Origin: a bacterium
GTDB lineage: Bacteria; SAR324; NAC60-12
Direction: 5' to 3'
DNA: 64,000 bases
Assembly: GCA_965233585.1 (NCBI GenBank)
Contig: CBDDTI010000746.1
Coordinates: forward strand, 672,001-736,000
Of this stretch, positions 4,301 through 51,817 are shown piece by piece (the first letter of the stretch is position 1; every line of letters begins with the position of its first letter). The notes beneath the pieces were generated by a model. It saw only the letters and a list, made by a program, of their open reading frames with translations, ran no database searches and was not told where the DNA came from. The translations under genes and the position numbers were made by a program.

Positions 4301-4312
4301 AATACAGTCCAT
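1304..4312 (-). CDS. glnE: Bifunctional glutamine synthetase adenylyltransferase/adenylyl-removing enzyme
   Basis: 1002 aa with two nucleotidyltransferase domains: GKLGGNELNYSSDVDL / RVDMRLRP and GKLGGRELNYYSDLDL / KLDTRLRP. WERQAL and GG.R/LD/EIE motifs present. Confidence 0.95.
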   Translation of the reverse strand: MDCILYPDWAIELAQSWQNEEWIEPWQEHLEELRFEGDFDQILKSLAQLRQLDNFQNLPQECFAELALYGDLEHSLWHLHDFCVACTKQKISLAASPKILAGLLKIFDCSAFLSRFLISQPAVVLDLFQSDYLFCVKPLATMRQELFQKIKQCKPYQHENLASLIRIYKYEEYLRITLRDLNDWDLQPAIWSEITSVNEICVEASLEVLWSLEEQHHSGLRFIDEPSFPIALLGLGKLGGNELNYSSDVDLIFVYDDTLLEPSHWFSKASKRQKFARKLIQFISEYTADGFIARVDMRLRPGDEQTPLFLSLSYICDYYQNDGKLWERQALIKAQFITGNTNIGTAFHKMLESFVFSKWIDDTQFSEIQEMKRRSEQEHKTDHFDVKHGEGGIREIEFFVQIFQLLYGGRKPVLQTSNTLEALERLQAEQLIKSSDAEMLSDAYTYLRRVEHRLQMKEEHQTHLLPSETHRQLIFSRQLGYVERSLTRARRHFLQDLKDKTTNVHTKFSTLFEQEYQNIKETLLQSWQGLDYPQQKLDELAEEIALQFCTIFKNHQEPKVIVRIQRLMESIDNKIEYYQFLLKTPASLRRLVRIAETSELLWNYLLNHLALIQQLDAKEQLHTPDEWRADLHQRLKQTPQVEEKFEVLREFTHEVTFLIGSAELEEFLQYHRARDRLSQLAETVLGEACQIAKDALQNSFGLPYGEDGQPAELAILGLGKLGGRELNYYSDLDLVFLYSAEGQTDGKISISNQQYYIKFVQRLISVLSTFTRNGYAYKLDTRLRPSGYGGTLVTLADKYWEYHKASQVWERQALLKARVLNLGSETAWIQKVKQQTESTAYELPLPETLQQDIAYLRFRKEKEQGQSEYDMANLKEGYGGILDIEYLSQYLQLIHGKTCHAVRTTQTLGAINQFAKHGILPKDTCVTLKKAYRFFQALEIYTRLSLDSSVNSVRLSELPVLSQKMKGFHELETKDLGETLLELRQQVRTHYKQYMSSTVRKG

Positions 4313-4318
4313 TTGACT

Positions 4319-4723
4319 TTAAACAGCTAATGAGAATCGTTCAATCAAACTCTTCCCCCAACTAATAATATTTGAGGCTTCTGTTGGTGAGATGTTGAGT
4401 TCTTTTGAGATTTTGTACAATTCGTCTTCCTCTTCTTTCACAAACTCACCATCAGAGACAGCAATGACTACCAAATCATAAAAGAGCATCAGTTTGGTTG
4501 AGTCAGAAATGTCTCCTATTTTGCGGGTGGGACTCACTCCAGATTTTAAGAGAGTGTTTAATCGCTTTCGGTCAGCAGTGTTTGGAAACATGGCAACAAT
4601 TTTTTGCAAAAAAGCTTCTTCGCTGCGATGCCTTTTGCCATCTGCCATGATGACTCTGACAACGGCTTCTCCATACCAAAGTCGTTGGTCAGAAGAAAGG
4701 GAGTTAAAAATGGCTGAATACAT
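4319..4723 (-). CDS. TerB-family (tellurite resistance-like) protein
   Basis: Two TerB motifs: IMADGKRHRSEEAFL and IAVSDGEFVKEEEDEL. Confidence 0.8.
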   Translation of the reverse strand: MYSAIFNSLSSDQRLWYGEAVVRVIMADGKRHRSEEAFLQKIVAMFPNTADRKRLNTLLKSGVSPTRKIGDISDSTKLMLFYDLVVIAVSDGEFVKEEEDELYKISKELNISPTEASNIISWGKSLIERFSLAV

Positions 4724-4849
4724 ACGTTCCTAATTTAATTTTTAAAATTTAAAATGTAAAAATAGCTGATTTTTTGACATTATACACCAAGCCAATGAGG
4801 ATATGAGAATGGCATAAAGTGAAGCAAGAAGTCAAACTATAGCCTCACT

Positions 4850-5533
4850 TCATTGTGTGTTTGACACGGAATCTCAAAAAACAAGAGTTGTTTGGGGAAA
4901 TGAAGAAATTAGAGGAAAAGAGAGAGATTGCGGGTCAAGGTGAGCAATGACAGGGGAATGAGGAAAAACAAAAGAGAGATTCCTGCTTTCGCAGAAATGA
5001 CAAAGAAAGAGGCAAGAATGACCAAATTCAACCTAGCAACCTCCCTTTGTCATTCCGTGCCTGATAAGGAATCTATCACCGAACCAAGCATGGATTCCTG
5101 CCCCTGTTTTCACAGGGGTGACGTTCTTTCGCTCCGAATGACCAAATGCAACCCAGCCAAATCCTCCTGTCATTCCGCACTTGATGCGGAATCTCAAAAG
5201 AAGTGAACGAAGAAAAAGAGAGATTGCGGGTCAAGCACGGAATGACTAAGTTCAAGTTGAGCGATGACGAAAAGACATGCTTGCAAAGTTTCTCAGTCAT
5301 TCCGCACTTGATACGGAATCCATCGTCAATATAGCGTGGATTCCTGCTTCCGCTCCGAATGACAAAGAAAGAGGAAGGAATGAAGGAAAAACAAAGCTCT
5401 CTGCTTGATGACTGTCATTCTGTTCTTGGCACGGAATCTCAAAAAAAAAAGTACGAACAGAGTGAAGAAAAATGAGATTGCGGATCAAGTCCGCAATGAC
5501 AGGTCTGTCATTGCGGACTTGATGCGGAATCTC
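4850..5533. repeat. Array of 12 REP-like palindromic repeats (~27 bp, consensus GTCATTCCGCACTTGATGCGGAATCTC) in mixed orientation
   Basis: Forward copies at ~4850, 5049, 5169, 5296, 5414 and 5507. Reverse copies at ~4924, 4976, 5091, 5220, 5337 and 5474. Each has an internal ATTCCG...CGGAAT-type palindrome. Confidence 0.9.
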
Positions 5534-5664
5534 AAAAACAAGAGTCGTTTGGGTAAGTGAAAGGAGGGAGAGGAAGAAGCGAGTTTTTTATTTTGTCATA
5601 AAAAATTGTTATTCGGTGGGTAAAGCTCGTTGTTTTTATGACAGCCTCGCTTGGAAAAGACGGC

Positions 5665-6993: not shown

Positions 6994-8049
6994 ATGATGA
7001 AAAAACTTTGCTCGTTCGCTTTGGCCTCTTCAATGGCAATAGCGGTGTTGGTGTCCATGTCTGCCGCGACTATGGCAGAACAAACTCTGAAAATTGGATT
7101 TTTGGGGTCAACTGATGATGAAGACCATGATGGCTCTTTAGTTTTTAAAAACTATGTAGAGTCTGCTTCCAACGGTTCTTTAAAGGTAGAAATCTACCCA
7201 AATGGTCGGTTTTGTTCCAATGCTGATGAATGTTCGGAAGCTCTGCTTGATGGCAGATTGGACATTTACATCACGACCAATGGTGGTTTGGCAGGCTGGT
7301 ATCCTCCTGCACAATTTTTAGACCTGCCCTATTTGTTCCCTAATGATGCAGTGGCAGAATGTGCTTTTGACTCAAGAATTACTGAAGCCCTTCGTAAAGC
7401 CGTTTTGGAAGAGGTAGGTGCTGCACGCCTGATGGCAATCTCTAATACTGGTGGCTGGAGAAATATTGCAACCACCAAAAAACAAGTCAAATCTCCTGAA
7501 GATGTCAAAGGATTGAAACTTCGCACGATTGGTGCAGAAATTCAAATTGAACTTGTGAAATCTATGGGGGGTAACCCAACCCCAATTCCTTGGCCTGAAG
7601 TTTACACTTCACTTGGAACAGGTGTTGTAGAAGGCACAAAAAATGGTATCACTGATATTGTCAATATGAAGTTTCAAGACCACCTGAACTATTTGGTGTT
7701 AGATGGTCATGCTTACATGGGAGCGATGTGGTGGATTAATGAAGACGTCTTTCAAGATTTAAGCAAAAATGAAAAACGTATCGTTTACCGAGGATTCCAA
7801 GAGTTAAAGTGGACGGCACGTCAAATGCCCAAACGTAAGTCTGTGGAAGCATATCAAGCCTTTCGTGATGCTAACGGAACAATTTACACCCCTACTGATG
7901 CACAGAAGGAAGAATTTAAAGCAGCCGCACGTCCTGTTTGGGCATGGTACGAAGATAAATTCGGAAGAGACTGGATTGATCTAGCTGAAGGTGCAGTCAA
8001 GTTCTGTCAAGCTCAACTTGAAATGGAATTTGAAAGAGCGACTCAATAA
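6994..8049 (+). CDS. dctP: TRAP transporter substrate-binding protein (DctP family)
   Basis: Signal peptide; LDLPYLF, KGLKLRT, NPTPIPWPEVYTSLGTGVVEG; GGAG RBS upstream. Confidence 0.9.
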   Translation: MMKKLCSFALASSMAIAVLVSMSAATMAEQTLKIGFLGSTDDEDHDGSLVFKNYVESASNGSLKVEIYPNGRFCSNADECSEALLDGRLDIYITTNGGLAGWYPPAQFLDLPYLFPNDAVAECAFDSRITEALRKAVLEEVGAARLMAISNTGGWRNIATTKKQVKSPEDVKGLKLRTIGAEIQIELVKSMGGNPTPIPWPEVYTSLGTGVVEGTKNGITDIVNMKFQDHLNYLVLDGHAYMGAMWWINEDVFQDLSKNEKRIVYRGFQELKWTARQMPKRKSVEAYQAFRDANGTIYTPTDAQKEEFKAAARPVWAWYEDKFGRDWIDLAEGAVKFCQAQLEMEFERATQ

Positions 8050-8063
8050 AGGCAGCAGCTAGC

Positions 8064-8687
8064 ATGTCCCTCACAAACACTTTGTTTCACCCTCTGATTT
8101 ATGTGTTGCAACAAATCAATTTGTTGGTGGAATATGTGTTGAAGCCTATCGTTACTTTATTGATGGCTCTCATGCTAGCAACGGTGGTGTTTGCTGTCTT
8201 TTCGCGAACAACAGGAATCATTGCTCCATGGACAGAAAAAGTGATGCTTGTCCTGTTGCCGTGTCTTGCATTTTTAGTCGCTCCTATCGCATATAGAAGA
8301 GCGGCTAATGTCTCGCTTAATTTCTTCCAAGAAATGCTTCCTTCCTCATTGCAAAAACTCCATCAGTTACTCATTCATCTTTTGATAGGAGTCATTTTGT
8401 TTATTGCTTTAGACCTAAGTTTACGCAAAATTGGTATCAATCCTCAGCTGTTAACTGAACTGATTGATTTCGTTTTTGGGATAGATTTGTCAGCAATTCG
8501 CCCTTTCAAAGCACGGATTAAAATCCCCATTCTTGGCATTGAATTGAAAACCGTTTACACCACTATCCCAATTTGTGTGTTTCTTATGATTTCAGTCAAT
8601 TTTGAAATGATCTTGCGTTCTTTCCTGAAAGACCATGAAAGAAACTTCACCTTGACCGATTTGAGAAATCACAAAAATAATCAATGA
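8064..8687 (+). CDS. dctQ: TRAP transporter small permease
   Basis: About 4 transmembrane segments, PWTE motif, located between dctP and dctM. Confidence 0.8.
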   Translation: MSLTNTLFHPLIYVLQQINLLVEYVLKPIVTLLMALMLATVVFAVFSRTTGIIAPWTEKVMLVLLPCLAFLVAPIAYRRAANVSLNFFQEMLPSSLQKLHQLLIHLLIGVILFIALDLSLRKIGINPQLLTELIDFVFGIDLSAIRPFKARIKIPILGIELKTVYTTIPICVFLMISVNFEMILRSFLKDHERNFTLTDLRNHKNNQ

Positions 8688-8722
8688 TTAATAGGTTGTT
8701 GACCTCAAATATTTAAAAAAAC

Positions 8723-10024
8723 ATGGTATCAGCGTTTTTATGGATTTTCTTAGCTTCATTGGCATTGGCTATTCCAGTTGTTTTTGGTTTGATTGGAACG
8801 TCTGGAATTGTCATTATCAATGAATGGGGGAATGCTTTTAAAATACGCGACCTTAATTCTATTCTTTCTCAAATCTTTTCGGGTATTTCATCAGTTCCAT
8901 TGCTTGCGCTGCCTATGTTTATTTTGGCAGGAGAGTTGATGAACACGGGGGGAATTACCCAACGTTTAGTGCAGTTTTCTCAGACGTTAATTGGTCATCT
9001 GCGGGGAGGATTAGCACAAGTCAATATTCTTTCTTCTGTCCTGTTTGCAGGTTTGTCTGGGTCTGCAGTGGCAGACACTTCAGCGCTGGGGTCTATGTTG
9101 ATTCCTGCAATGGAAAAACAAGGCTATACCAGACGTTTTGCAACTGCGGTAACAGCGGCGTCTTCTGTGATTGGTCCCATCATTCCTCCCAGTGGAATTA
9201 TGATTATTTATGCTTTTATCATGGGAGTTTCACCTGCTGCAATGTTTGCCGCTGGTATGATTCCCGGTTTGATGATTGCGGGGGGTTTGATGCTGTTAAC
9301 ATGGAGGCTTTCAATACGTTACGACTTTCCTGTTGCCAATCAACGTTCCAGCCTCAAAGAAATTTATAATGCAGGCAAGATGACATTCTGGCCCCTGCTG
9401 ACGCCTGTCATTTTATTAGGGGGGATTTTAACAGGAATTTTTACCCCAACAGAAGCTGCAGGTGTTGCCGCATTTTATGCCTTGATTGTTGCATTATTTG
9501 TGATTAACGCCTTGAAATTCAGAGAACTGCCTTCTATTTTTTATCGTGCCGCTGTTTCGTCAGGTGTGATTTTGATGTTGATAGGGGCATCTAAAGCGTT
9601 TTCTTGGATTGCAGACCAAGTGGGTGCGGCACAACTGATTGCAGAATTTGTCATGGGCATTAGTACCAACATGGCAGTTTTGCTCATTGCTCTGAATTTA
9701 ATGCTGTTTGTTGTGGGTATGTTCTTAGATGCAGGACCTGCTATTTTGATTCTTGGACCTATTTTAAGCAAAGTGTTTGTGACACAAATAGGCATGGATC
9801 CTCTTCACTTTGCAATCATCATGTGTGTCAATGTCACTGTGGGGCTAGCAACACCCCCTATGGGACTTGTTCTTTTTGTTGCCGCCTCTATTTCTAAAGA
9901 ACGTGTAGAAGTGATTGCCAAATCTATATTCCCTTTTCTTTTGGTAGAAGCGGGGGTGATTTTTCTCATTACCTTCGTGGAAGACCTCGTTCTTTTTGTC
10001 CCTCGCTTGTTGGGATTACACTAG
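8723..10024 (+). CDS. dctM: TRAP transporter large permease
   Basis: LALPMFILAGELM, GLSGSAVAD, GPIIPPS, TPTEAA, TPPMG. Confidence 0.93.
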   Translation: MVSAFLWIFLASLALAIPVVFGLIGTSGIVIINEWGNAFKIRDLNSILSQIFSGISSVPLLALPMFILAGELMNTGGITQRLVQFSQTLIGHLRGGLAQVNILSSVLFAGLSGSAVADTSALGSMLIPAMEKQGYTRRFATAVTAASSVIGPIIPPSGIMIIYAFIMGVSPAAMFAAGMIPGLMIAGGLMLLTWRLSIRYDFPVANQRSSLKEIYNAGKMTFWPLLTPVILLGGILTGIFTPTEAAGVAAFYALIVALFVINALKFRELPSIFYRAAVSSGVILMLIGASKAFSWIADQVGAAQLIAEFVMGISTNMAVLLIALNLMLFVVGMFLDAGPAILILGPILSKVFVTQIGMDPLHFAIIMCVNVTVGLATPPMGLVLFVAASISKERVEVIAKSIFPFLLVEAGVIFLITFVEDLVLFVPRLLGLH

Positions 10025-10071
10025 TTTGTCTCCATTTTTCTTTGATTTGTCTCAGTTAGAAGAGGTTACAA

Positions 10072-11127
10072 GTGTCTAAAATGATGCTGGGAGTTTACCT
10101 TCCCGGTGATTCAACTGCTGTCTTAAAAGAAGTTCCAATTCCCAAACCAGGTATTGGGGAGGTGTTGTTAAAAGTCAAAGCCAGTGGAATTTGTGGGTCT
10201 GATATACATTTCATTTACCACGAACACAAAGGACGCAAAGGTAAGGGAACTGCCTACTGGAATGTGATTGCTGGGCATGAACCCTGTGGTGAAATTGTTG
10301 AGCTGGGACAAGGCTGTCGTTTTTTTAAAGAAGGAGACAGGGTTGTTGTTTATCATGTCTCAGGCTGCGGATTTTGTCGTAACTGCAGAAGAGGCTTTCA
10401 AGTGTCTTGTTCAGAACCAACTAGAAAAGGATATGGTTGGCGGAGAGATGGAGGGCATGCTAATTATCTCCTTGCTGATGAGAAGGATTTAGTCAAACTT
10501 CCCAAAGAACTTTCATGGAAAGATGGTAGCTTTGTCGCATGTGGTGTTGGAACAGCCTATGAGGCAACGTTGCGAGCAAATATTTCTGGGGTGGATTGTG
10601 TCTTGGTTGTAGGTTTGGGACCTCTTGGTTCTGCTGTGTCTCTGCTTTCCAAAGGAAGAGGGGCAAAACTAGTCATAGGAGTAGATACTCAACCCCAACG
10701 AGTAGAATCTGCCAAAAATCAAGGTTTGGTTGATTTGGGGCTAGTTGTAGGAGATGAAACTTTGGAACAAATTGATGAAGTGACGAAAGGAGGTGCTTCT
10801 TGCACCATAGATTGTTCAGGCAATCCACATGGTCGTTTACTGGCTTTGCAAGCATGCCGTGAATGGGGACGCACTGTTTATGTTGGGGAAACAGGTCATG
10901 TGCAATTTGACGTCTCTGATGAACTTTTGCACAAACACCGAACAATCATTGGCTCTTGGGTCACCAGTTTAGCCAATATGGAAGATTGTTGTGACAACCT
11001 TGTCGCTTGGAATCTTCACCCAGAAGCTATTGTACAGGACGTCTTTCCTTTAGAAAAAGCCCCAGAAGCCTACCAAATGATGGCAGAAGGCAGCTGCGGA
11101 AAGATTGTAATTGACCCAGAACTCTAA
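10072..11127 (+). CDS. yphC: Zn-dependent (MDR family) dehydrogenase, YphC-like
   Basis: GICGSD, GHEPCG and structural-Zn CGFCRNC..C motifs. YLPGDST, GETG and IGSWVTSL match the recalled E. coli YphC. Confidence 0.8.
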   Translation: MSKMMLGVYLPGDSTAVLKEVPIPKPGIGEVLLKVKASGICGSDIHFIYHEHKGRKGKGTAYWNVIAGHEPCGEIVELGQGCRFFKEGDRVVVYHVSGCGFCRNCRRGFQVSCSEPTRKGYGWRRDGGHANYLLADEKDLVKLPKELSWKDGSFVACGVGTAYEATLRANISGVDCVLVVGLGPLGSAVSLLSKGRGAKLVIGVDTQPQRVESAKNQGLVDLGLVVGDETLEQIDEVTKGGASCTIDCSGNPHGRLLALQACREWGRTVYVGETGHVQFDVSDELLHKHRTIIGSWVTSLANMEDCCDNLVAWNLHPEAIVQDVFPLEKAPEAYQMMAEGSCGKIVIDPEL

Positions 11128-11157
11128 TCAATCAAAGTCAAACCAAGCTCCTCCTAA

Positions 11158-11175
11158 TCTAGCATTCTTGCTAGA
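11158..11175. terminator. Short hairpin between convergent genes (possible bidirectional terminator)
   Basis: TCTAGCA-TTCT-TGCTAGA between the stops at 11127 and 11179. Confidence 0.35.
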
Positions 11176-11178
11176 AAT

Positions 11179-12222
11179 TCAAAGTTTATCTTTTTTCGTG
11201 ATGGATTCACGGCAGAACCTTTTAACATTTTCCCAAAGCTTTGCCATGCCCAGTGGCTCGTAGATCATAAAAACGATAATCAAAACGCCAAAAACTATCT
11301 GCTCAACAGAAGAAATGATGGTCGCATCAATTCCACCGTGAAACACGTTATTGCCAATGCTATTAAGCAAGATGGGGAAAAGTAGAATAAATGCCGCTCC
11401 GATGAAAGCACCGTTTATGGTTCCCAGTCCACCAAGAATTGCCATGAAAAGCACTTTGAACGAAAGTTTGATGTCAAAAGCCACCGGCTCTAAAGACTTC
11501 AGGTAAGTAAACGCAAACAACGCGCCAGCTACTCCACAATAAAAGGCACTAATTGCAAATGCCTGAAGTTTCGTTTTCAGTAGGGATATTCCCATGGATT
11601 CTGCAGCAATGTCCATATCACGGACAGCCATCCACTTTCTGCCAGTGCTTCCCCTTGCCATATTCACTGCCAAGAGAGTCAGGACTGTCACAACGACCAC
11701 AATCACCAGAAACATTTCTACTGGTGTAGTAAATGATTTTCCCAAAATCACAATATCTTGTGCGGTGATGATCCCTGATGAATCGTAGTTTTTGAACCAA
11801 CCAAATTTATCAATCATCCAGATGATAAAAAATTGGGACGCCAAGGTGGCTACCATCAAGTAAATTCCCCTCACCCTCAGGCTTGGTAATCCAAACAGAA
11901 TCCCAAAAAAAGCGGCAATCAACCCCGACAAAATCAGTGCGCCAAAAAAAGGTAAGTGAGGAACACGAAGAATCAGGTTGAAACAAGCAAAGGCGCCAGC
12001 AGCCATGAAACCAGCAGCACCCAATGCAAGTTGCCCTGTGTAGCCCATCACAATTTGTTGTCCGATTGTGGCAAGAGCTAAACACAACCAAGGTATCAAA
12101 ATGGAAGTGTACCAATAATCACTTGTGACCAAAAATGGAATCGCAAGAAACGCTAAAACCATCAAAGCACAAAAGTTTCTAATATCTCTCTTTGAATATG
12201 TCCAAAAAATATATTTTTCCAT
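11179..12222 (-). CDS. livM: Branched-chain amino acid-type ABC transporter permease (LivM-like)
   Basis: GYTGQLALG, LRVRGIYL, GRKWMAVRD..IAAESMGI, ILGGLG. Confidence 0.88.
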   Translation of the reverse strand: MEKYIFWTYSKRDIRNFCALMVLAFLAIPFLVTSDYWYTSILIPWLCLALATIGQQIVMGYTGQLALGAAGFMAAGAFACFNLILRVPHLPFFGALILSGLIAAFFGILFGLPSLRVRGIYLMVATLASQFFIIWMIDKFGWFKNYDSSGIITAQDIVILGKSFTTPVEMFLVIVVVVTVLTLLAVNMARGSTGRKWMAVRDMDIAAESMGISLLKTKLQAFAISAFYCGVAGALFAFTYLKSLEPVAFDIKLSFKVLFMAILGGLGTINGAFIGAAFILLFPILLNSIGNNVFHGGIDATIISSVEQIVFGVLIIVFMIYEPLGMAKLWENVKRFCRESITKKDKL

Positions 12223-12243
12223 AGTATATTGTCTGTTTTGAAC

Positions 12244-13146
12244 TCACACTCTCTTAATGATCTTCTCACCAAATAACCCCTCAGGTCTGTACAATAAGAA
12301 GAAAATTGCTAATACGTAGGGTGCCCAGCCTTCAATCGCACCACCAAAATAAGGACCAATGTACACCTCTAGCACTTTTTCTGTTGCTCCAATGAGTAGT
12401 CCGCCAACAATCGCACCGGGTATTGAGGAAAACCCTCCTATGATTAAAACTGGCAAAGCCTTCAATGCCAGATCAACAAGTGCAAATTGAACTCCAGCCC
12501 TTGCGCCCCACATGCACCCAGCGACTAGTGCCACAACACCTGCTGAAGACCAAACTAGCAACATGATGTTTTTTAAAGGAATACCCACAGAACTTGCAGC
12601 GCCAGGGTCATCAGCAACAGCTCTCAGACCCAGACCCATTTTTGTGTACTTGAACAACAAAGCGAGTCCAATGATCATAGCAAAAGCAACCACCCCAGCA
12701 GTTAGGTCAAGTGCGCTGATAAATAACGATAAATTGTCAGCGATCCAAGGTATGGGAAAGTCACCAATGCCTAAATCCAATCTTCTAACTTCAACACCCC
12801 AAGCCGCTTGAGCTAGCCCTTCAAGCACAAATCCAAGACCAATCGTTGCCATTAACAAAGTGTCTTCACTTTGGTTAATCAGTGGTTCTAAAACCAATCT
12901 TTCAGTAAAGAAACCGACAAGAATCATCAGCACAATGGTCACGATGAATGCCAGAACAAAGGGGATCCCGAGTTCCATGAATCCGACAAAGGCAAGCACA
13001 GCAAAAAAGACCATGGCACCTTGTGCAAAGTTGAACGTTGATGAGGCTTTGTAGATCAATACAAAGCCCAGAGCAACTAATGAATACATCGTTCCAGCTA
13101 GCAACCCACCGACCACAACTTCAATAAAAAATAAGACTTCAGTCAT
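12244..13146 (-). CDS. livH: Branched-chain amino acid-type ABC transporter permease (LivH-like)
   Basis: YSLVALGFVLIYKAS..FNFAQG, GLRAVADD, RPEGLFG. ATG at 13146 has a GGAG RBS. Confidence 0.88.
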   Translation of the reverse strand: MTEVLFFIEVVVGGLLAGTMYSLVALGFVLIYKASSTFNFAQGAMVFFAVLAFVGFMELGIPFVLAFIVTIVLMILVGFFTERLVLEPLINQSEDTLLMATIGLGFVLEGLAQAAWGVEVRRLDLGIGDFPIPWIADNLSLFISALDLTAGVVAFAMIIGLALLFKYTKMGLGLRAVADDPGAASSVGIPLKNIMLLVWSSAGVVALVAGCMWGARAGVQFALVDLALKALPVLIIGGFSSIPGAIVGGLLIGATEKVLEVYIGPYFGGAIEGWAPYVLAIFFLLYRPEGLFGEKIIKRV

Positions 13147-13945
13147 GTGCAACTCCTAAGTATGCGTCTATGACGTCTTGGTTAGATCGGACTTCATCTG
13201 GTGGACCATCTGCAATCACTTTTCCATAGTCAAGCACGACTACGTTATCTGAAATATCCATCACGATTCCCATGTCGTGTTCAATTAACACTATGGCGGT
13301 GCCTAGTTCTTCGTTGACTTTGAGGATAAACCGACGCAGTTCCCTCTTTTCCTCAGTACTCATGCCTGCCATAGGCTCATCTAGTAAGAGTACCTCAGCT
13401 TCTGTTGCCAGCGCACGACCTAGCTCAACTTTCTTTTGCAGACCGTAGGGAAGTTTTCCAACTGGTGTATTCTGAATCCCTTCAATTTCCAGAAATTTGA
13501 CGATTTCTTCACATTTTGCCCGATTGACTTTCTCCTCATTCCTTGCCTTTGGCGTTTGGAAGGCAACCTGTAAAAAGTTAGCTTGAGTATGAAGTTTTCT
13601 ACCAACCAGAATATTATCCAGCACGGACATTCTTTTGAACAAAGCAAGATTTTGAAAAGTTCTTGAAATGCCTTTTTGTGCAATGAAATTCGGTTTGATT
13701 TTTTCCAAAACTTCGCCCTTGAACACTATCTTCCCCTCCTGAGGTCTATAAATTCCATTGATGCAATTCAGCATAGAACTTTTGCCAGCACCATTGGGAC
13801 CAATGATTGCTCTTACTTCATGTTCCAACAGACTGAAGGAAGTGTCAGTGATGGCTTTGACTCCACCAAAGCTTAGCGATATGTTTTTGACTTCTAGGAT
13901 TGGCTTGCCAATTAAAAATTTTCTTTCTCTTGTCATATCTGTCAA
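13139..13945 (-). CDS. livG: ABC ATP-binding protein (LivG-like)
   Basis: GPNGAGKS, RTFQN, LPYG, LLLDEP, IEHDM. Confidence 0.9.
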   Translation of the reverse strand: MTDMTRERKFLIGKPILEVKNISLSFGGVKAITDTSFSLLEHEVRAIIGPNGAGKSSMLNCINGIYRPQEGKIVFKGEVLEKIKPNFIAQKGISRTFQNLALFKRMSVLDNILVGRKLHTQANFLQVAFQTPKARNEEKVNRAKCEEIVKFLEIEGIQNTPVGKLPYGLQKKVELGRALATEAEVLLLDEPMAGMSTEEKRELRRFILKVNEELGTAIVLIEHDMGIVMDISDNVVVLDYGKVIADGPPDEVRSNQDVIDAYLGVAHD

Positions 13946-14739
13946 TCTCTGAGACCTTCCTCCTCTTTTGAAATGCCCAAGTACAATTCTTTGACCTTTT
14001 CATCGTTTGACAGACTTTTAGCAGTGCCATCTAACATCACTCTGCCTGTTTCAATAACGTAGCCATAGTCAGCATTTTTAAGAGCAATGTTTGTGTTCTG
14101 CTCTGCCAACAAAATTGAGACATTTTCTTTTTCATTGAGTTCTTTCACAATTCTAAAAATTTCAGCAACGAGTTGCGGTGCTAATCCCATTGACGGCTCA
14201 TCTAACAGCAGCATCCTTGGTTTTGCCATCATTGCCCTAGCGACTGCAATCATTTGCTGCTCACCACCAGAGGTATAACCTGCCTGCTTTTTTCTGCATA
14301 CTTTCAGCCGCTTGAAATAGTCATACATCTTTTCTAATTCCTGCTTAATTTCCTTCTTAGACAGCTTTCTTGAATAAGCCCCAGCAATGATGTTTTCCTC
14401 CACTGTTAAGTGTCCAAAACAACGTCTTCCTTCAAGAACTTGGACGACGCCTAAGCCGACCATCTTTGCTGGATTTAATCTTTCATCAACTTTTGTTCCG
14501 TCATACTCAATCGTACCCTTAGTCACCTTGCCTCTTTCGGTCATCAACATCGTTGAAATGGCTTTCAGTGTTGTACTTTTGCCAGCACCGTTGCCCCCCA
14601 AGAGGGCAACGATTTTTCCCTTTGGCACGTTGATAGAAACATCATGCAAAGCGACGATGACATTGTCATACGTCACCTCTATGTTTCTGACCTCAAGTAT
14701 GTTTTGTTGTTGAGAAGTCATTGAAGAAATGAAAGTCAA
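13942..14739 (-). CDS. livF: ABC ATP-binding protein (LivF-like)
   Basis: GGNGAGKS, SGGEQQM, LLLDEPSMGLAP, AEQN. Confidence 0.9.
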   Translation of the reverse strand: MTFISSMTSQQQNILEVRNIEVTYDNVIVALHDVSINVPKGKIVALLGGNGAGKSTTLKAISTMLMTERGKVTKGTIEYDGTKVDERLNPAKMVGLGVVQVLEGRRCFGHLTVEENIIAGAYSRKLSKKEIKQELEKMYDYFKRLKVCRKKQAGYTSGGEQQMIAVARAMMAKPRMLLLDEPSMGLAPQLVAEIFRIVKELNEKENVSILLAEQNTNIALKNADYGYVIETGRVMLDGTAKSLSNDEKVKELYLGISKEEEGLRD

Positions 14740-15935
14740 GATTTTGTGTATTGCTCTGCTTCTTCTGACCCTTTAGTTGCATCGCCCTTGCTGTAAGAAT
14801 GTTTTCCCATTCCTGCAAGAGACCCATCTTTCACGATAAAGTATTCATCGCGAATGGGTTGGTTGTTGAAAAATCCCTCTAGGATTTCTCTTGTCCCAGC
14901 AGCATACCTTGTTTGTGCGGAAAGTGTTGTTCCTGATGTATGGGGGGTCATGCCATGGTGGGGCATGGTTCTCCAGATGTGGTCATTAGGAGCAGGTTGT
15001 GGAAACCAAACATCTCCAGCGTAGCCACTCAGTTGTCCCGATTTTAAGGCTTGTGCAACAGCTTCTTTGTTACAAATTTTGCCTCTGGCAGTATTGATTA
15101 AATAAGCACCTTTTTTCATTTGACTGATTAGGTCTGCATTAAATAAATTTTCAGTTTCAGGGTGTAAAGGGCAATTAATCGTCACAACATCACACACAGA
15201 AACCATAGATTTAACCGAGTCGTGAAAGACCAACCCTAGTTCTTGTTCAATAGACTCTGGCAGTCTGTGCCTGTCAAAATAATGCAAATGGACATCGAAA
15301 GGCTTCATTTTTCTCAATACGGATAGTCCAATACGACCTGCCGCCACTGTTCCTATGTGCATTCCTTCCACATCATAAGAACGTTTCACTGCATCAGCAA
15401 TATTCCAACCTCCAGACTTGGCAATCGCATACTGATTATGATAGTCACGGACTAAGGACAGAATCATCATCACCACATGTTCAGAGACAGAAATAGAGTT
15501 GCAATAAGTTACTTCTACAACGTCTACTTTGTGTTCCATGGCAGCTTGTAAATCCACATGGTCTGACCCAATACCTGCTGTAATTGCCAGCTTCAATTTG
15601 GGAGCTTTTTCCATTCTTTCTCTCGTCAGATAGAAGGGCCAAAAAGGCTGAGAAATGACCACATCAGCATCAACTAACTCTTTGTCTGCTTCTGAATCAG
15701 TTCCATCTTTATCCGAAGTCACTACAAGAGTATGTCCCTGCGATTCTAAAAACTTTCGCAATCCCAGTTCCCCAGAAACACAACCTAAAAGTTCCCCTGA
15801 CTTAAAATCTACATCACTTGGATTAGGCAGTGTCATTCCATCTGGATACTTCTCCAGCTTTGGCAATTCATCTAAAGGATAAGAGCTTGGCATTCCACCT
15901 TGAGGGTCATCGTACAAGACGCATAGTATTTTCAT
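14736..15935 (-). CDS. fdh: NAD-dependent (metal-independent) formate dehydrogenase
   Basis: KILCVLYDDP..G.P, LLGCVSGELGLRKFLE, ISQPFWP, TAGIGSDHVDL, YCNS, AAGRIG, FDRHRL (NAD-type Asp), NTARG, GDVWFPQP, TPHTSG. Confidence 0.96.
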   Translation of the reverse strand: MKILCVLYDDPQGGMPSSYPLDELPKLEKYPDGMTLPNPSDVDFKSGELLGCVSGELGLRKFLESQGHTLVVTSDKDGTDSEADKELVDADVVISQPFWPFYLTRERMEKAPKLKLAITAGIGSDHVDLQAAMEHKVDVVEVTYCNSISVSEHVVMMILSLVRDYHNQYAIAKSGGWNIADAVKRSYDVEGMHIGTVAAGRIGLSVLRKMKPFDVHLHYFDRHRLPESIEQELGLVFHDSVKSMVSVCDVVTINCPLHPETENLFNADLISQMKKGAYLINTARGKICNKEAVAQALKSGQLSGYAGDVWFPQPAPNDHIWRTMPHHGMTPHTSGTTLSAQTRYAAGTREILEGFFNNQPIRDEYFIVKDGSLAGMGKHSYSKGDATKGSEEAEQYTKS

Positions 15936-15964
15936 TTGATTTTTCTCCTAGACATTTGATAATT

Positions 15965-16003
15965 AAAAAAAGACGGCAACGCCTCCCAATTTATGGGAAG
16001 CGT
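15965..16003 (-). terminator. Intercistronic stem-loop with downstream T-tract between the SBP gene and fdh (partial terminator or mRNA stabiliser)
   Basis: Minus strand ACGCTTCCCA-TAAAT-TGGGAGGCGT, then TGCCGTC and T7. Confidence 0.5.
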
Positions 16004-16045
16004 CAATGTGACCACATTGTGCTGGTCAACTTGTTTGTTAAAACT

Positions 16046-17383
16046 TTATCCACACTTCTTCGGTGTGATGTTGTTCTCTCTGGCAAATTTTGCGGCTGAT
16101 TGCTCAACCAAACCTCTGATGTAAGCAGGGTCAAGAGGGGCTTCCCAACCTGTAATCTGCTTGAACTGCTTCCCGTCCCATTGCATGACGGCAAACTTAC
16201 CAGCTCCCTCATGGTTTTCACACGAGATTGCAAAAGGGGCAACCATTCCTTTAATGCCAATTTCTGCAAGACGACTTTCCGTCATGTTGAGTGCTTCATA
16301 ACCGTCTCTAAATTCTGCACCTGTGACTGCTTTACCTTCTTTGTTATGTATCCTTTGTGCGTTTTTCAGGGCTTCTATCCACATCACAGCGGCACCTAAT
16401 CCACGGTTCCAGTAAACTGAACCAAGACGACTCTCATCTGCTAGATTCCCTTTGCCTGCACCATACACTTGGTCTTTAATTTTTTTCACCAAAGGAAAGT
16501 TGTCTCCGGGCAAAGCATTGGCAACGGCATAAGTCCCAACTGCAGATTTGCCAGCAGGATACATATCTTCTTCTGCTGCACCAAAAGTGACGTAAATCAT
16601 GCGATCTCTTGGGAAACCAACACGAGCGGCATTGGTCATTGCAGTAGAGTTCATACCTGAACCTGCTCCCCAGAACGTAACCCAATCAGGTCGTTCTCTT
16701 CTGATTTGCAACCATTGAGATTGCTGTTCTAGTCCAGGTGGAGGAATAGAAATTTCAACCAATTTGACGCCCCAATCAGAAGTGATTTTTCTCATGGCTG
16801 GCAAAGGTTCGCGACCGTAGGCAGAATCAATGTGAAGGTGGACAATTTTTTTGCCTTTCATCTTATCCACTCCTCCTTCAATTTCAGCCATGAACTTTAA
16901 CTTGACTGCAATTTGAGACCAGTAATGACTAGCGGCATTAAAAACCCAAGGCCAGACCCTGCCGTCAGCGCCATCTGTCCTACCATATCCGTATTGTGCC
17001 AAAACGACATTGTCCTCTGCCATACGATTGATGACAGCATAAGCCCCCGGTGTGCCAAGAGTGTCAAAGACCACAATTCTTTGTCCATCTTTTTCAAGCA
17101 AACGTTGATAGCATTCAACTGTCTTGACAGCGTTGTACTCAGTTTCACATTCCTGCCATGTGAGCATCACACCATTGACTCCACCATTCATGTTGATGTA
17201 GTTCATGTAGTCTATTTGGGCACCATAATACCCAGTCCCCATCGCTGAATAAGGACCAACCCGACTACTGGCTATTGGGAAGTATTGCACCTCTTCACCA
17301 AAGGTGACGGGTGTTAATACGAAAGCAGGACACCCTACCATCGCAAGCATTGAAAACAGGTAACGAAAAGATCTTTTAATCAT
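16046..17383 (-). CDS. ABC transporter substrate-binding protein (type I PBP, Liv-like family)
   Basis: Signal peptide; NGGVNGV, ECETEYN, GYGRTDGADGRVWPWVF, SAYGREP, QWLQIRR. Confidence 0.9.
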   Translation of the reverse strand: MIKRSFRYLFSMLAMVGCPAFVLTPVTFGEEVQYFPIASSRVGPYSAMGTGYYGAQIDYMNYINMNGGVNGVMLTWQECETEYNAVKTVECYQRLLEKDGQRIVVFDTLGTPGAYAVINRMAEDNVVLAQYGYGRTDGADGRVWPWVFNAASHYWSQIAVKLKFMAEIEGGVDKMKGKKIVHLHIDSAYGREPLPAMRKITSDWGVKLVEISIPPPGLEQQSQWLQIRRERPDWVTFWGAGSGMNSTAMTNAARVGFPRDRMIYVTFGAAEEDMYPAGKSAVGTYAVANALPGDNFPLVKKIKDQVYGAGKGNLADESRLGSVYWNRGLGAAVMWIEALKNAQRIHNKEGKAVTGAEFRDGYEALNMTESRLAEIGIKGMVAPFAISCENHEGAGKFAVMQWDGKQFKQITGWEAPLDPAYIRGLVEQSAAKFARENNITPKKCG

Positions 17384-17477
17384 GGTCTAACTCCTTAAAG
17401 TATGTTTGAAAGACGACGCAATCCACTGGTTTTTTCATATTTATTTGCTCCTATAAATGATGATTTTGATGTGGCAA

Positions 17478-17935
17478 CCACTGCCATTCTGTTTTTTCAT
17501 ATTCACTCTCTCCCCAGTCAAGAATCAAGTCCATGAAAAAAACTGGGTGCAGTCTGACACTCATCTTGAAACCTGTCAAGGTTTTTTTAAGCCCAAGAAC
17601 AAATCAAGTTTTTTTAAGTTCAAGAACAGAAGTGCCAAGAGACCACTGCCTCCATTTTGTTTTTCCACACGCACCCCCTCCCTAGTCAAGAATCAAGTCT
17701 ATGAAAAAAACTGGGCGTAGTCTGACACTCATCTTGAAACCTGTCAAGGTTTTTTTAAGCCCAAGAACAAATCAAGTTTTTTCAAGTTCAAGAACAGAAG
17801 TGCCAAGAGACCACTGCCTCCATTTTGTTTTTCCACACGCACTCTTTCCCTAGTCAAGAATCAAGTCCATGAAAAAAACTGGGTGCAGTCTGACACTTAT
17901 CTCAAAACCTGTCAAGTTTTTTTTAAGCCCAAGAA
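17478..17935. repeat. Tandem repeat with a 168-bp unit, ~2.7 copies, in a divergent intergenic region
   Basis: GTCAAGAATCAAGTC recurs at 17517, 17685 and 17853 (period 168). The copies differ by a few substitutions. Confidence 0.95.
17551..17915 (-). promoter_or_regulatory. Three copies of a sigma70-like promoter (TTGACA-N17-CAGACT with TG extension) facing the SBP-fdh-liv operon
   Basis: Copies at 17551-17579, 17719-17747 and 17887-17915. Minus strand reads TTGACA ggtttcaagatgagtgt CAGACT. Confidence 0.5.
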
Positions 17936-18129
17936 TAAAAGGGGGTAAGAAGTGGGTTTGATATAGATGAGAAGATTGTTGGTGTTATTGGTAAAAACAA
18001 GAGAGGCACTAGCTTTTGCAAGGAGATACCCAAAATCTCTGAACATATTTTTTTGGATTATTGACTTGACAATGATTTCTAAATGTTGAAAATATAGCGT
18101 TTTTGTCTCACTCTCAACTAAAGGTTATT

Positions 18130-19221
18130 ATGAAAAGAAGAGATTTTTTGAAAAAGGCAGGTGTGGGGTCTGCTGTGGCAGGTGTGGCTCTTTCTGCAGC
18201 TCCTGCTGTTCATGCCAAAAAAACACGTCGTTGGAAAATGGTGACGACTTGGCCTAAAAACTTTCCAGGTCTAGGCACAGGTGCAAACCACCTTGCAAAG
18301 CTCATTACGGAGCTGACGGGTGGTGAAATTAAGGTCAAAGTTTATGGAGCAGGTGAGCTTGTTCCCGCACTTGGTATCTTTGACGCTGTTTCGCAAGGGA
18401 CTGCACAAATGGGGCATGGTGCTTCTTACTATTGGAAGGGCAAGCACCCTGCGACACAGTTTTTTGCAACAGTCCCTTTCGGTCTAAATGCTGATGAAAT
18501 GATTGGCTGGATCAAGCACGGCGGTGCTCAAAAACTCTGGGACGAACTTTACGCTGATTTTAATTTGAAACCTTTTGCAGTAGGTAACACAGGCGTTCAA
18601 ATGGGAGGCTGGTTTAATAAAGAAATCAACTCTGTTTCAGATTATAAGGGTTTGAAGATGCGCATGCCTGGACTTGGTGGGGAAGTCATCAAAAGAGCTG
18701 GAGCCACTGTTGTTTTATTGCCCGGTGGTGAACTGTTTCAAGCATTACAATCGGGAACGATAGATGCGACAGAATGGGTCGGACCTTATAATGATCTGGC
18801 TTTTGGGTTTCATAAAGCTGCAAAGTATTATTATTGGCCCGGGTGGCATGAACCGGGAACTGTGCTTGAAGCATTTGTGAACCGTGAAGCATACGAAGAC
18901 CTTCCCAAAAATCTGCAAGCAATCGTTTCTGCTGCATGTGATTCTGCTTACTTAGACATGTTTGCAGACTTCACAGCACGTAACAATTCCTCTCTTGAGA
19001 CGCTCGTTAATAAACATGGCGTGCAACTCAGAGAATTTTCTGACGATATTCTTAAAACAATGGGAGAACTCAGTAGAGATGTGGTGGCAGAAGCTGGAGA
19101 ATATGACTCACTTAGTAAAAAAGTCTATGACTCTTTTGCTAAGTTTCAAGTGGATTCTGTCGCATGGAATCGCCTTGGGGATCAAGGATTTTCCATAGCT
19201 CGTGCTTTGACATACATCTGA
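18130..19221 (+). CDS. takP: TRAP substrate-binding protein, TakP-like (alpha-keto acid/monocarboxylate type), Tat-exported
   Basis: Tat signal MKRRDFLKK; WKMVTTWPKNFPGLG, GNTGVQMGGWF, EWVGPYND, PGWHEP. Confidence 0.82.
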   Translation: MKRRDFLKKAGVGSAVAGVALSAAPAVHAKKTRRWKMVTTWPKNFPGLGTGANHLAKLITELTGGEIKVKVYGAGELVPALGIFDAVSQGTAQMGHGASYYWKGKHPATQFFATVPFGLNADEMIGWIKHGGAQKLWDELYADFNLKPFAVGNTGVQMGGWFNKEINSVSDYKGLKMRMPGLGGEVIKRAGATVVLLPGGELFQALQSGTIDATEWVGPYNDLAFGFHKAAKYYYWPGWHEPGTVLEAFVNREAYEDLPKNLQAIVSAACDSAYLDMFADFTARNNSSLETLVNKHGVQLREFSDDILKTMGELSRDVVAEAGEYDSLSKKVYDSFAKFQVDSVAWNRLGDQGFSIARALTYI

Positions 19222-19239
19222 TAGCTGTGCTAAACAGAC

Positions 19240-19268
19240 ACCAGATGACTGCTTTTCAGTCATCTGGT
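19240..19268 (+). terminator. 12-bp perfect stem-loop downstream of the TRAP SBP gene
   Basis: ACCAGATGACTG-CTTTT-CAGTCATCTGGT. Confidence 0.55.
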
Positions 19269-19360
19269 CTAGTGTGCGGTGTTCACCCTTGATTGTTGTC
19301 AATCAAAAATAAGTTACCAATCAAAATAAGATGACTCACCTTTTTCAAATTCATTAATTT

Positions 19361-19990
19361 ATGTTGCAGGCAGCGGCCAGTTCTAAGATGCCCTCTTCGT
19401 TTGTCATCAATTTGGACAGATACATCATCAAAGACGTCTGTTCCAAGATTGATCGTGTGAATGAAAAGCTGGGAGAGTTTCTTTCGTGGTGTCTCTTGGC
19501 GATGATTATCATCACGTTTATCGTGGTGCTTTTCCGTTATTTTTTGAATACGGGTTGGGTGTGGATGCAGGAGTCTGTCATGTATTTACACGGCATCGCC
19601 TTCACGATTCCTGCTGCTTATTCTTTTTTAAAGGAGGCACACGTTCGTGTTGATGTGCTATACAGCCAAGTTGATTTTGAAAAACGTGCGTTTTGCAACA
19701 TTGCAGGGACGGTTTTGTTTCTCATTCCAACTTGTCTGCTGACCATCTACTACGGATTCCCTTACGTCTTAGATTCGTGGCTTAATTTGGAAGACTCGCA
19801 GGAGGCAGGAGGGATTCCAGCAGTCTTTCTTTTGAAGTCACTCACCATCATTTTTCCTTTCTTTTTGATGTTGCAAGGGATTTCTAAACTTTTAAATAAT
19901 GTCTTTTATTTGCTTTGTTCTCGTAGCTTCCCAGATGAAGAAAAAGTTAACAGAGCATGCACAGCAGGAATTATAAAAGATGAAAAATAG
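19361..19990 (+). CDS. dctQ: TRAP small permease
   Basis: VVLFRYF, WMQE, HVRVDVLY. The start may lie further downstream. Confidence 0.88.
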   Translation: MLQAAASSKMPSSFVINLDRYIIKDVCSKIDRVNEKLGEFLSWCLLAMIIITFIVVLFRYFLNTGWVWMQESVMYLHGIAFTIPAAYSFLKEAHVRVDVLYSQVDFEKRAFCNIAGTVLFLIPTCLLTIYYGFPYVLDSWLNLEDSQEAGGIPAVFLLKSLTIIFPFFLMLQGISKLLNNVFYLLCSRSFPDEEKVNRACTAGIIKDEK

Positions 19991-21455
19991 CCTCTTCATC
20001 GCTTTTGCGGCGATTAGTGCATTGACTATCTTTGCAGTTTTGCCATTGGGTTTTCATTTTGCTGAAGATGAGTTTTATCCCTTCGTGGCAATTATCATGT
20101 TTTTTGTGGCATTTTTCATTGTCTTGCTGGGTTACCCTGTTGCCTTTAGTCTTGCAGGAACAGGAGTTCTTTTTGCTTTGGTCGGAAGCGTTTTTGACGT
20201 CTTTGATTTAAGTATTCTTGCTGCATTTCCGCAACGGGTGATGGGAGTCATTGGAAATGGACCTTTGATGGCAATCCCTCTTTTTATTTTCATGGGAGTT
20301 GTCCTAGAACGTTCTGACATATCAACTGAATTGTTAGAATCTATGGGGACGTTGTTCGGGAAGGTGAGAGGAGGATTAGGAATTTCTGTTTGTGTGGTTG
20401 GGGCATTATTGGCGGCATCAACTGGCATTGTGGGTGCAACGGTGGTAACGATGGGGTTGATTTCACTACCAACCATGTTGCGCTATCGTTACAATCCCAT
20501 TCTGGCAAGTGGGATTATTACGGCATCAGGAACTTTGGGGCAAATCATTCCGCCCAGTATTGTCTTGATTGTTTTAAGTGATGTTGTCAACTCTGCTTAT
20601 CAGCAAGCACAGTTGAATGCGGGAAACTTTTCACCTCGTTCCATTTCTGTTGGTGATTTGTTTGTCGGGGCATTGGTGCCGGGCTTAGTGCTAGTCTCTT
20701 TGTACATTTTGTATGTGGTTCTTGTCGCAATCTTTTTTCCCAAATCTGCACCTCCTGTTGAAGAATCTGAGAAACTAGACAAAGCCTTAATTGTCAAGTT
20801 ACTGAAGGGGCTGGTTCCTTCCTTGCTTTTAATTGTTGGAGTTTTAGGGTCAATTTTACTTGGGATTGCAACTCCGACAGAAGCCGCATCGGTTGGCTGT
20901 GTGGGGGCATTGTTGCTTGCCTTTTTAAAGAAAAAGCTGACATACGAAATGATTCAAAGTGTTCTCAAATCAACACTCAATGTGAACTGCATGGTGTTCA
21001 TCATCATTTTGGGTAGTAGTATGTTCTCGCTTGTTTTCAGGGGGTATGAGGGAGAAGAATACGTGACAGAGCTTTTGCAATCATTACCCGGTGGGGTCTT
21101 TGCGGCATTGTTGGGAGTGATGTTGCTCATTTTTATTATGGGCTTTTTCCTAGATTTTTTTGAGATTATCTTTGTTGTGATTCCTGTAGTTGGTCCTGTT
21201 CTGCTAGCAATGGACATTGACCCAATTTGGTTTGCGATTCTGATTGCAGTGAATCTACAAACGTCTTTTTTGACCCCTCCTTTTGGCTTTTCTCTTTTTT
21301 ATTTGAGGGGTGTTGCACCGCCTAGTGTAACAACAGCCCATATTTACTTAGGAGCCGTCCCCTTCATCATCATTCAGATTCTTGTCATTTGTCTTTTGTG
21401 GAATGTGCCAGAACTGGCAACATGGCTACCTGAATTGATTTATGGGAAGTCATGA
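19980..21455 (+). CDS. dctM: TRAP large permease
   Basis: GYPVAFSLAG, AASTGIVGATVV, GTLGQIIPPS, NLQTSFLTPPFG. Confidence 0.93.
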   Translation: MKNSLFIAFAAISALTIFAVLPLGFHFAEDEFYPFVAIIMFFVAFFIVLLGYPVAFSLAGTGVLFALVGSVFDVFDLSILAAFPQRVMGVIGNGPLMAIPLFIFMGVVLERSDISTELLESMGTLFGKVRGGLGISVCVVGALLAASTGIVGATVVTMGLISLPTMLRYRYNPILASGIITASGTLGQIIPPSIVLIVLSDVVNSAYQQAQLNAGNFSPRSISVGDLFVGALVPGLVLVSLYILYVVLVAIFFPKSAPPVEESEKLDKALIVKLLKGLVPSLLLIVGVLGSILLGIATPTEAASVGCVGALLLAFLKKKLTYEMIQSVLKSTLNVNCMVFIIILGSSMFSLVFRGYEGEEYVTELLQSLPGGVFAALLGVMLLIFIMGFFLDFFEIIFVVIPVVGPVLLAMDIDPIWFAILIAVNLQTSFLTPPFGFSLFYLRGVAPPSVTTAHIYLGAVPFIIIQILVICLLWNVPELATWLPELIYGKS

Positions 21456-51397: not shown

Positions 51398-51400
51398 AAA

Positions 51401-51817
51401 ATGATTATTTATCTTGATAATTGTTGTTTTAACAGACCTTTTGATGATCAAAGGTATTTATCTATTAAAATAGAAACTGAATGTAAATTGTTTATACAAC
51501 AAGCCATTAAAGAAGGAAAATTGATTTTATGTTGGTCATACATTCTTGATTTTGAAAATCATCAAAACCCTTTTTTAGAAAGAAAAATACAAATCCAAGA
51601 ATGGAAAAATATAGCTCTTAAAGACACTGAAGAAACAACAGAAATTTTAAAAATAGTGAAGACTTTCACTGCACTTGGATTCAAACCTTTAGATGCTTTA
51701 CATTTAGCTTGTGCCGTAGAAATGAAATCAGATTATTTTATCACGGTTGATAAAGGTATTTTAAAAGTATCTGAAAAATATTATCTCTTAAAATTATATC
51801 TCCTGTTGATTTTGTAA
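51401..51817 (+). CDS. PIN-domain (VapC-like) toxin; C-terminus apparently frameshifted
   Basis: IYLDNCCFNRPFDD, DALHLACA, FITVD. The alternative frame after the A5 tract at 51774 gives KIISPVDF. Confidence 0.8.
   Translation: MIIYLDNCCFNRPFDDQRYLSIKIETECKLFIQQAIKEGKLILCWSYILDFENHQNPFLERKIQIQEWKNIALKDTEETTEILKIVKTFTALGFKPLDALHLACAVEMKSDYFITVDKGILKVSEKYYLLKLYLLLIL

Follow-up and report, generated by a model that had tools for sequence, protein, structure and literature searches.

Gene content of the locus

The DNA analysed here, referred to as the window, is a stretch of 64,000 nucleotides (nt) from a bacterium of the SAR324 lineage (NAC60-12; GenBank assembly GCA_965233585.1, contig CBDDTI010000746.1, positions 672,001 to 736,000). 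It contains an operon in which the gene for a NAD-dependent formate dehydrogenase (FDH) lies among the genes of a Liv-type ATP-binding cassette (ABC) transporter, a system for which import of formate is proposed below. According to the open reading frame (ORF) listing and family scans, the operon occupies the minus strand from 17383 to 11179 with six genes in the order substrate-binding protein (SBP), fdh, livF, livG, livH and livM, as described in the initial annotation of this DNA (Table 1). Apart from fdh, the operon contains only transporter genes, and these are tightly packed. The first possible start codon of livF, TTG at 14739-14737, overlaps the fdh stop codon, TGA at 14738-14736, so that the predicted overlap of the two genes at 14736-14739 holds for this start; an alternative ATG at 14721-14719, 18 nt past the TTG, would leave a gap of at most 14 nt. 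A further overlap of 4 nt joins livG to livF. Both junctions recurred, with zero differences, in the contigs of three samples that belong to one study and may include the source of the window, indicating that the arrangement is not a chimera of one assembly. No RNA run was listed as containing 13900-17400 of the window.

Table 1. Coordinates of the operon, its non-coding elements and the flanking genes in the window
Feature	Position	Strand	Description
SBP gene	16046-17383	-	445 aa; first operon gene; Peripla_BP_6 PF13458, 127.9 bits, E 9.3e-37
NAD-dependent FDH gene	14736-15935	-	399 aa; between SBP gene and livF; NF005750; 2-Hacid_dh and 2-Hacid_dh_C
livF-type ABC ATPase gene	13942-14739	-	ABC_tran
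livG-type ABC ATPase gene	13139-13945	-	ABC_tran and BCA_ABC_TP_C
livH-type permease gene	12244-13152	-	BPD_transp_2, 100 bits
livM-type permease gene	11179-12222	-	last operon gene; BPD_transp_2, 112.2 bits
Terminator-like hairpin	15977-16005	-	12 pairs (6 G-C), then T run; in 110-nt SBP-fdh gap
Tandem repeat	17484-17939		168-bp unit, 2.7 copies, 92% matches, score 786; upstream of SBP gene
Zn-dependent alcohol dehydrogenase gene	10072-11127	+	convergent with livM
TRAP transporter operon (DctP, DctQ, DctM)	6994-10024		flanks the formate locus on one side
TRAP transporter operon (DctP, DctQ, DctM)	18103-21455		flanks the formate locus on the other side

The FDH scored 672.7 bits against NF005750, above the curated equivalog cut-off of 329, and aligned without gaps over residues 2-398 to the solved NAD-dependent enzyme 2GSD (E 7.8e-196). 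Three further structures, 3FN4, 2GO1 and 2NAC, matched nearly as well, with all four E-values between 1e-192 and 1e-196. The catalytic motifs had been read as intact, and in the alignment the stretches QPFWP, GIGSDHVD, YCNS, NTARGK, PQPAP and TPH, which presumably hold the catalytic residues, were identical between the window enzyme and 2GSD. The enzyme is assigned from these matches as a predicted NAD-dependent FDH (EC 1.17.1.9).

The transporter genes have the complete build of a Liv-type system, presumably of the HAAT family, with a Peripla_BP_6 SBP, two BPD_transp_2 permeases and two ATPases, one of which carries a BCA_ABC_TP_C tail. However, the scores for the LivF, LivG, LivH and LivM NCBIfam equivalogs were under their cut-offs (201.6 vs 441, 255 vs 362, 85.5 vs 379 and 97.3 vs 366, respectively), and the SBP matched no NCBIfam model, the LivJ and urea/amide SBP models included. 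By these profiles the system does not classify as equivalent to Escherichia coli LivJ/H/M/G/F, that is, as an importer with amino-acid specificity.

The SBP carries the motif by which its subfamily had been recognized, in the form GYGRTDGADGRVWPWVF. An AF2 model of the protein had a pLDDT of 86.7, with values below 50 for residues 1-28, which are probably a signal peptide. The closest solved relative was 4RU0 (E 1.6e-100; Foldseek TMq 0.86, 40% identity), a structural-genomics entry from the Pseudomonas fluorescens group that is of the same length class and has the GYGRT motif and a C-terminal cysteine in common with the window SBP. The title of this entry names no ligand, and no paper on it was found among the matches listed. 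The other Foldseek matches were likewise cluster-B SBPs, of which the second-best binds valine and others bind fatty acid, aromatic acids, urea or amides.

Formate genes beside the transporter in other genomes

Relatives of the SBP were collected in a scan of one genome per species, which found 342, and the best 80 of these (83-92% identical) were combined with 80 metagenome loci (75-90% identical) to give 160 related loci. By title, the best 80 came from Pelagibacteraceae, Rhodobacteraceae, Parvibaculaceae, Thalassobaculaceae, Denitrobaculum, Nitratireductor and one gammaproteobacterial metagenome-assembled genome (MAG). The LivFGHM proteins were 71-93% identical across the 160 loci in same-component matches, one livG-livF cross-match being excluded, and two SBP clusters formed at 90% identity had 1349 and 1856 member sequences. 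The sources give the homologues generic names, such as 'branched-chain amino acid transport system substrate-binding protein'. When two SAR11 genomes that carry this SBP were queried, each gave a single match, its own orthologue, at E up to 0.001. On these identities, the SBP is assigned to a distinct and very conserved marine subfamily that spans SAR11, Rhodobacteraceae-like bacteria and other Pseudomonadota.

A survey of gene neighbourhoods for conserved fdh linkage had been proposed, and its outcome was divided. An fdh gene between the SBP gene and livF was found in none of the 160 loci, so that the window arrangement is unique among them, but 78 of the 160 had a formate gene adjoining the operon. 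When the count was restricted to loci with full flanks (3 kb or more upstream and 2 kb or more downstream), the proportion was 53 of 80. NAD-dependent FDH was the most common neighbour (39 of all loci, 32 of those with full flanks), followed by Fds-type FDH (20 and 11), formate-tetrahydrofolate ligase (FTHFS; 12 and 10) and a membrane protein of the HPP family (PF04982) as the only such neighbour (seven and none). No formate gene was seen in 82 loci, many of which have short flanks, and in 27 of the full-flank set.

The neighbours were arranged in several ways. In low-GC loci of Pelagibacteraceae type, HPP follows livM and NAD-FDH is divergent from the SBP gene, or an HPP-FDH pair is divergent from the SBP gene, or FTHFS and an amidotransferase gene lie upstream of it. 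By annotation, FTHFS and the amidotransferase gene are counterparts of SAR11_1285 and SAR11_1286, as these are given in a figure legend by Sun et al. (PMC3160333). The Fds-type loci were recognized from a metal-type FDH match on the apparent contig of L001 in a whole-genome search, after which all loci were searched with fds proteins. Annotation of L001 placed fdsGB-fdsA-folD in divergent orientation at 777 nt from the SBP ORF; its fdsA scored 752.6 bits on TIGR01591, for which the cut-off is 666.25. In 13 Rhodobacteraceae-like loci (GC content 42-44%), fdsGB-fdsA is co-directional with the SBP gene and about 393 nt upstream of it; one of this type, L030, has a LysR gene in front (fdsA 753 bits on TIGR01591 vs 666). 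In four alphaproteobacterial loci with a GC content of 32%, livM is followed after about 190 nt by fds genes, fdsGB in all four and fdsA in three, the fourth ending earlier. In L245 and L248, fdsA of the divergent type lies about 120 nt upstream of the SBP gene; the order in L245 is HPP-fdhD-fdsB-fdsA-SBP-livF, all co-directional. The fdsA of L245 scored 798.3 bits, and its FdhD passed the cut-off. The metagenome loci L230-L233 share the same SBP and have no formate gene in the flanks covered. In L230, the only one of the four that was annotated, the SBP gene is immediately preceded, on the same strand and at a gap of about 380 nt, by pntA and pntB (NAD(P) transhydrogenase; 2532-5553).

Two of the loci contain further genes of note. 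Just upstream of the LysR-fdsGB-fdsA-SBP cluster of L030, which comes from a Rhodobacteraceae single amplified genome, are photosynthetic reaction-centre L and M genes (196-1621), suggesting that the carrier is probably an aerobic anoxygenic phototroph. In L236, a metagenome locus with a GC content of 32%, the SBP gene has a phage-type integrase gene (2587-3882) some 2 kb upstream, which fits with a mobile transporter operon.

Genes for CoA ligase or for lactate, glycolate or pyruvate enzymes were not found beside the operon in any annotated neighbourhood. Formate is the only metabolite shared by the neighbouring enzymes, which comprise two unrelated FDH types, FTHFS, FolD and FdhD. In an SBP tree, reconstructed by a quick method with SH-aLRT support only, the NAD-FDH, HPP and FTHFS loci fell into one clade (support 98), and the window paired with L002, a gammaproteobacterial MAG locus without FDH (support 80). 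Fds-type loci were placed both inside this clade (L245 and L248) and among loci labelled there as unlinked. This spread indicates that linkage arose more than once; five or more separate origins are counted, and the arrangements number seven or more.

The neighbourhoods were also viewed from the enzyme. A search with the window FDH gave 80 FDH loci (77-84% identical) from, by title, many phyla. FTHFS was convergent with and adjacent to NAD-FDH in 37 of the 80, all labelled Pelagibacteraceae or Pelagibacterales (for example L098, with FDH at 7001-8179 on the plus strand and FTHFS at 9887-8205 on the minus strand). L146, L149 and L151 also carry a metal-type fdsB-fdsA pair, no more than about 1 kb from NAD-FDH. 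The HPP-family protein was encoded directly upstream of NAD-FDH, on the same strand and at about 80 nt, in 15 of 80 loci, with titles from Rhodobiaceae, Hyphomicrobiales, a gammaproteobacterial MAG and Pelagibacteraceae. HPP upstream of FDH was recorded for L086-L092, L096, L111, L135, L142, L146, L149-L151 and L160, and further HPP genes are at 121-597 in L245 and 2255-2728 in L244. This position suggests that the HPP protein may be a formate channel; the literature search yielded no description of an HPP-formate link among the matches listed.

The host genome of the window is 12.0 Mb in 747 contigs and 92.5% complete, and the window FDH is its sole NF005750 match above cut-off. Within that completeness, profile searches detected no Fdh-alpha above cut-off, no FNT channel, no HPP and no FTHFS, and also no FmdA/AmdA amidase, no oxc above cut-off and no frc. 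Routes to formate from oxalate and formamide are therefore not supported in this genome. In 40 relatives of the window genome (1.6-9.7 Mb), homologues of the SBP were only 31-48% identical, and 17 of the 40 had none at E 1e-30. The operon, in contrast, is 84-92% identical to operons of distant lineages, and from this difference it looks horizontally acquired by the window genome. The FDH arrived with, or into, the importer operon, and no other recognised formate route was found in the genome.

Non-coding elements and flanking genes

The hairpin between the SBP gene and fdh lies in an intergenic region (15936-16050) with a predicted fold of -29.7 kcal/mol (z -3.18), and is a possible attenuator. 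An alignment of this spacer with the SBP-livF spacers of four relatives revealed no sequence conservation from which the insertion of fdh could be delimited. The 168-bp tandem repeat sits between the SBP gene and the divergent TRAP SBP gene and occurs nowhere else in the 12-Mb genome. By eye, each copy has promoter-like TTGACA words and an imperfect inverted repeat, and an 87-aa ORF without a family match (17457-17720, plus strand) lies within the repeat region. Rfam gave no match in 10900-18300 of the window at E up to 0.1.

The DctP-type SBP of the second TRAP operon has a twin-arginine signal motif and a weak match to 'formate dehydrogenase region TAT target' (24.5 bits, under the cut-off). 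Elsewhere in the window is a type III restriction-modification locus (49538-58004), with methylase genes at 49538-51397 and 52109-54016 and a res helicase gene at 55452-58004; small DUF5615 and nucleotidyltransferase-substrate-binding genes lie between the methylase and res genes.

Known transport systems and the likely substrate

The window operon has its five-part build in common with the LivJ/LivK-LivHMGF importer (Peripla_BP_6 SBP, two BPD_transp_2 permeases, and the LivG and LivF ATPases), but its components are under the equivalog cut-offs, it adds an FDH, and its genomic context favours formate over amino acids. The known formate transporters, mainly FocA/FNT channels and OxlT-type exchangers, have the substrate that is proposed for the window system; they are, however, unrelated proteins with another source of energy, being channels or exchangers as opposed to an ATP-driven pump with a binding protein.

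A nearer comparison is offered by operons in relatives of the window genome, in which distant homologues of the SBP (35-48% identity) are encoded in the order AMP-binding ligase-livG-livH-livM-SBP-livF. The acyl-CoA ligase that the initial annotation had associated with this kind of SBP was present in all six such loci examined, but no AMP-binding gene was detected in 6994-21455 of the window. The two operon types follow the same logic, namely a transporter with the first enzyme acting on the imported acid, but differ in gene order and in the enzyme, which is FDH in the window operon and a ligase in the other. In addition, the alignment shows differences between the window SBP and its relatives in several loops that form the lining of the cleft in the relatives and presumably do so in the window SBP as well. 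Without a ligase gene, the window operon falls outside the predicted class of CoA-ligase-coupled carboxylate importers. 4RU0 may belong to the ligase-linked subfamily.

Binding proteins of SAR11 have been studied directly. Clifton et al. (2024; PMC11485210) catalogued 18 SBPs of Ca. P. ubique HTCC1062, among which, in the portions of that paper available, SAR11_1346 binds amino acids and SAR11_1361 binds C4/C5 dicarboxylates; these two are taken here as the Liv-type members of the 18. SAR11_1361 is, like the window SBP, a Liv-type protein; it binds carboxylates at nanomolar affinity, not amino acids, and is abundant in marine bacteria. The genes next to it are of csiD type, whereas the window SBP has FDH beside it, and in a comparison by eye of partial sequence from the supplement its gene was shorter and mismatched at the end. 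An orthologous relationship to SAR11_1361 was rejected indirectly, on this difference in length and C-terminal end, as judged by eye from partial sequence, together with the finding of one match per SAR11 genome. SAR11_1290, an uncharacterised SBP encoded close to fhs in HTCC1062, was also rejected as an orthologue, as the authors call it a TRAP SBP (PMC11485210). As far as the available parts of that catalogue and these comparisons go, the present SBP appears not to be one of the characterised SAR11 binding proteins.

The transporter is judged likely to be an ABC importer of formate, as the initial annotation had proposed, and comparative genomics supports this interpretation in that formate genes recur beside the transporter. 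The most economical reading of the operon is probably that of a self-contained module for formate uptake and oxidation. The periplasmic SBP would bind formate, possibly with a narrow range of very small carboxylates, and the LivHM-type permeases and LivG/LivF-type ATPases would drive it inward at the expense of ATP. A cytoplasmic NAD-FDH, translated from what is predicted to be the same transcript, would then turn formate into CO2 and NADH. NAD-dependent FDHs have a millimolar Km for formate. An active importer could concentrate formate from external traces to the amounts required by enzymes of such low affinity, and a concentrative pump would thereby make sense of the pairing with FDH. A carboxylate ligand would also fit the family, because the distant SBPs pair with acyl-CoA ligases and the nearest folds bind fatty or aromatic acids. 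Formate as the ligand and an inward flux that serves oxidation are what we infer from gene content and context.

Several observations weigh against import of formate. Of the loci with full flanks, 27 of 80 have no formate neighbour of any kind. Since the NAD-FDH, HPP and FTHFS loci form one clade, the many SAR11 loci represent few independent events, and SAR11 accessory genes tend to cluster in variable genome regions. Viewed from the enzyme, the transporter was within 7 kb of NAD-FDH in none of the 80 FDH loci, which indicates that FDH does not need the transporter, as would be expected if the enzyme also serves internally made formate. Among 32 transporter-bearing genomes without an adjacent NAD-FDH, only four have NAD-FDH anywhere. 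Fdh-alpha above cut-off and FTHFS were each found in 25 of these 32, counts that are consistent with the hypothesis of formate import rather than a test of it; the genomes without both were small partial assemblies. The energetic margin is also thin. With about 2 ATP spent per ABC cycle and about 2.5 ATP gained per NADH, the net return on imported formate would be small, and supply of C1 units through FTHFS may weigh as much as energy.

One alternative is that another small acid, such as acetate, pyruvate, glycolate or lactate, or a broad range of short monocarboxylates, is imported, and that adjacency to FDH reflects shared energy-scavenging regulation or a location in variable regions. Such a substrate is unlikely, though it deserves more weight than the other alternatives. 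The full-flank loci without a formate gene fit it, as do L230-L233, with PntAB upstream in L230, and the larger carboxylates bound by relatives of the SBP; the available text of PMC11485210 adds a Liv-type C4/C5 dicarboxylate SBP in SAR11. A literature search for a Liv-type transporter of D-lactate in Phaeobacter found no paper. Against these stand the absence of any enzyme for another acid beside the operon in the annotated neighbourhoods, the recurrence of three unrelated formate enzymes in at least seven arrangements, and the fact that FDH is the only non-transporter gene of the window operon.

The initial annotation had also allowed for a formate-yielding C1 compound. Import of oxalate, formamide or an N-formyl compound, with FDH clearing the formate made, keeps a place as a rival but is improbable: neither the window genome, which lacks oxc above cut-off, frc and an FmdA/AmdA-type amidase, nor any annotated neighbourhood of the operon supplies an enzyme for it, and the SBP matched no NCBIfam urea or amide SBP model, even though the Liv family includes urea and amide importers, proteins binding these compounds are among the fold matches, and offshore SAR11 are reported, in the text available, with oxalate and formate metabolism (PMC12636525). 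It is very improbable that the system is an ordinary importer of branched-chain amino acids into which fdh was placed by chance. Such an importer would agree with the names given to the homologues and with the valine-binding fold match, but all five transporter proteins are under the LivJ/F/G/H/M equivalog cut-offs, the SBP matching none of these models; the SBP query finds only its own orthologue in two SAR11 genomes, and the linkage to formate genes recurs across clades.

Import of formate, the favoured reading of the transporter, would matter for marine bacteria. Formate in seawater comes from photochemistry and phytoplankton and is present at trace levels only, and formate dehydrogenases are widespread in marine bacteria. 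Formate failed to increase the ATP content of Ca. P. ubique HTCC1062, even though this strain possesses FDH and fhs, and the authors guessed that there was no transport (PMC3160333). A 2025 paper (PMC12636525) describes fdh as a gene specific to the offshore genera of SAR11, with a pN/pS of 0.0127 that marks strong purifying selection; when its text was searched by term for an ABC transporter or substrate-binding protein, neither was found. Searches of open-access papers and bioRxiv turned up no account of an ABC importer for formate or of linkage between transporter and formate genes. Among SAR11 isolates in culture, HIMB2226 (locus L011) has the FDH-linked form, and its SBP is 86% identical to that of the window.

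The wider proposal is that a highly conserved and highly abundant Liv-type system of marine bacterioplankton, SAR11 and Rhodobacteraceae-like lineages among them, is a high-affinity, ATP-driven formate importer, that HPP is a second, channel-type carrier, and that trace formate is widely harvested at sea; on the genomic comparisons made here, the balance tips slightly in its favour. If formate is indeed the substrate, the transporter would supply the missing step for the entry of external formate into marine bacteria and would represent a transporter class for this compound of which no description was found in the literature. Its gene could also serve as a marker by which formate use is recognized in ocean metagenomes, and the smallest carboxylate would join the ligands of Liv-type binding proteins.

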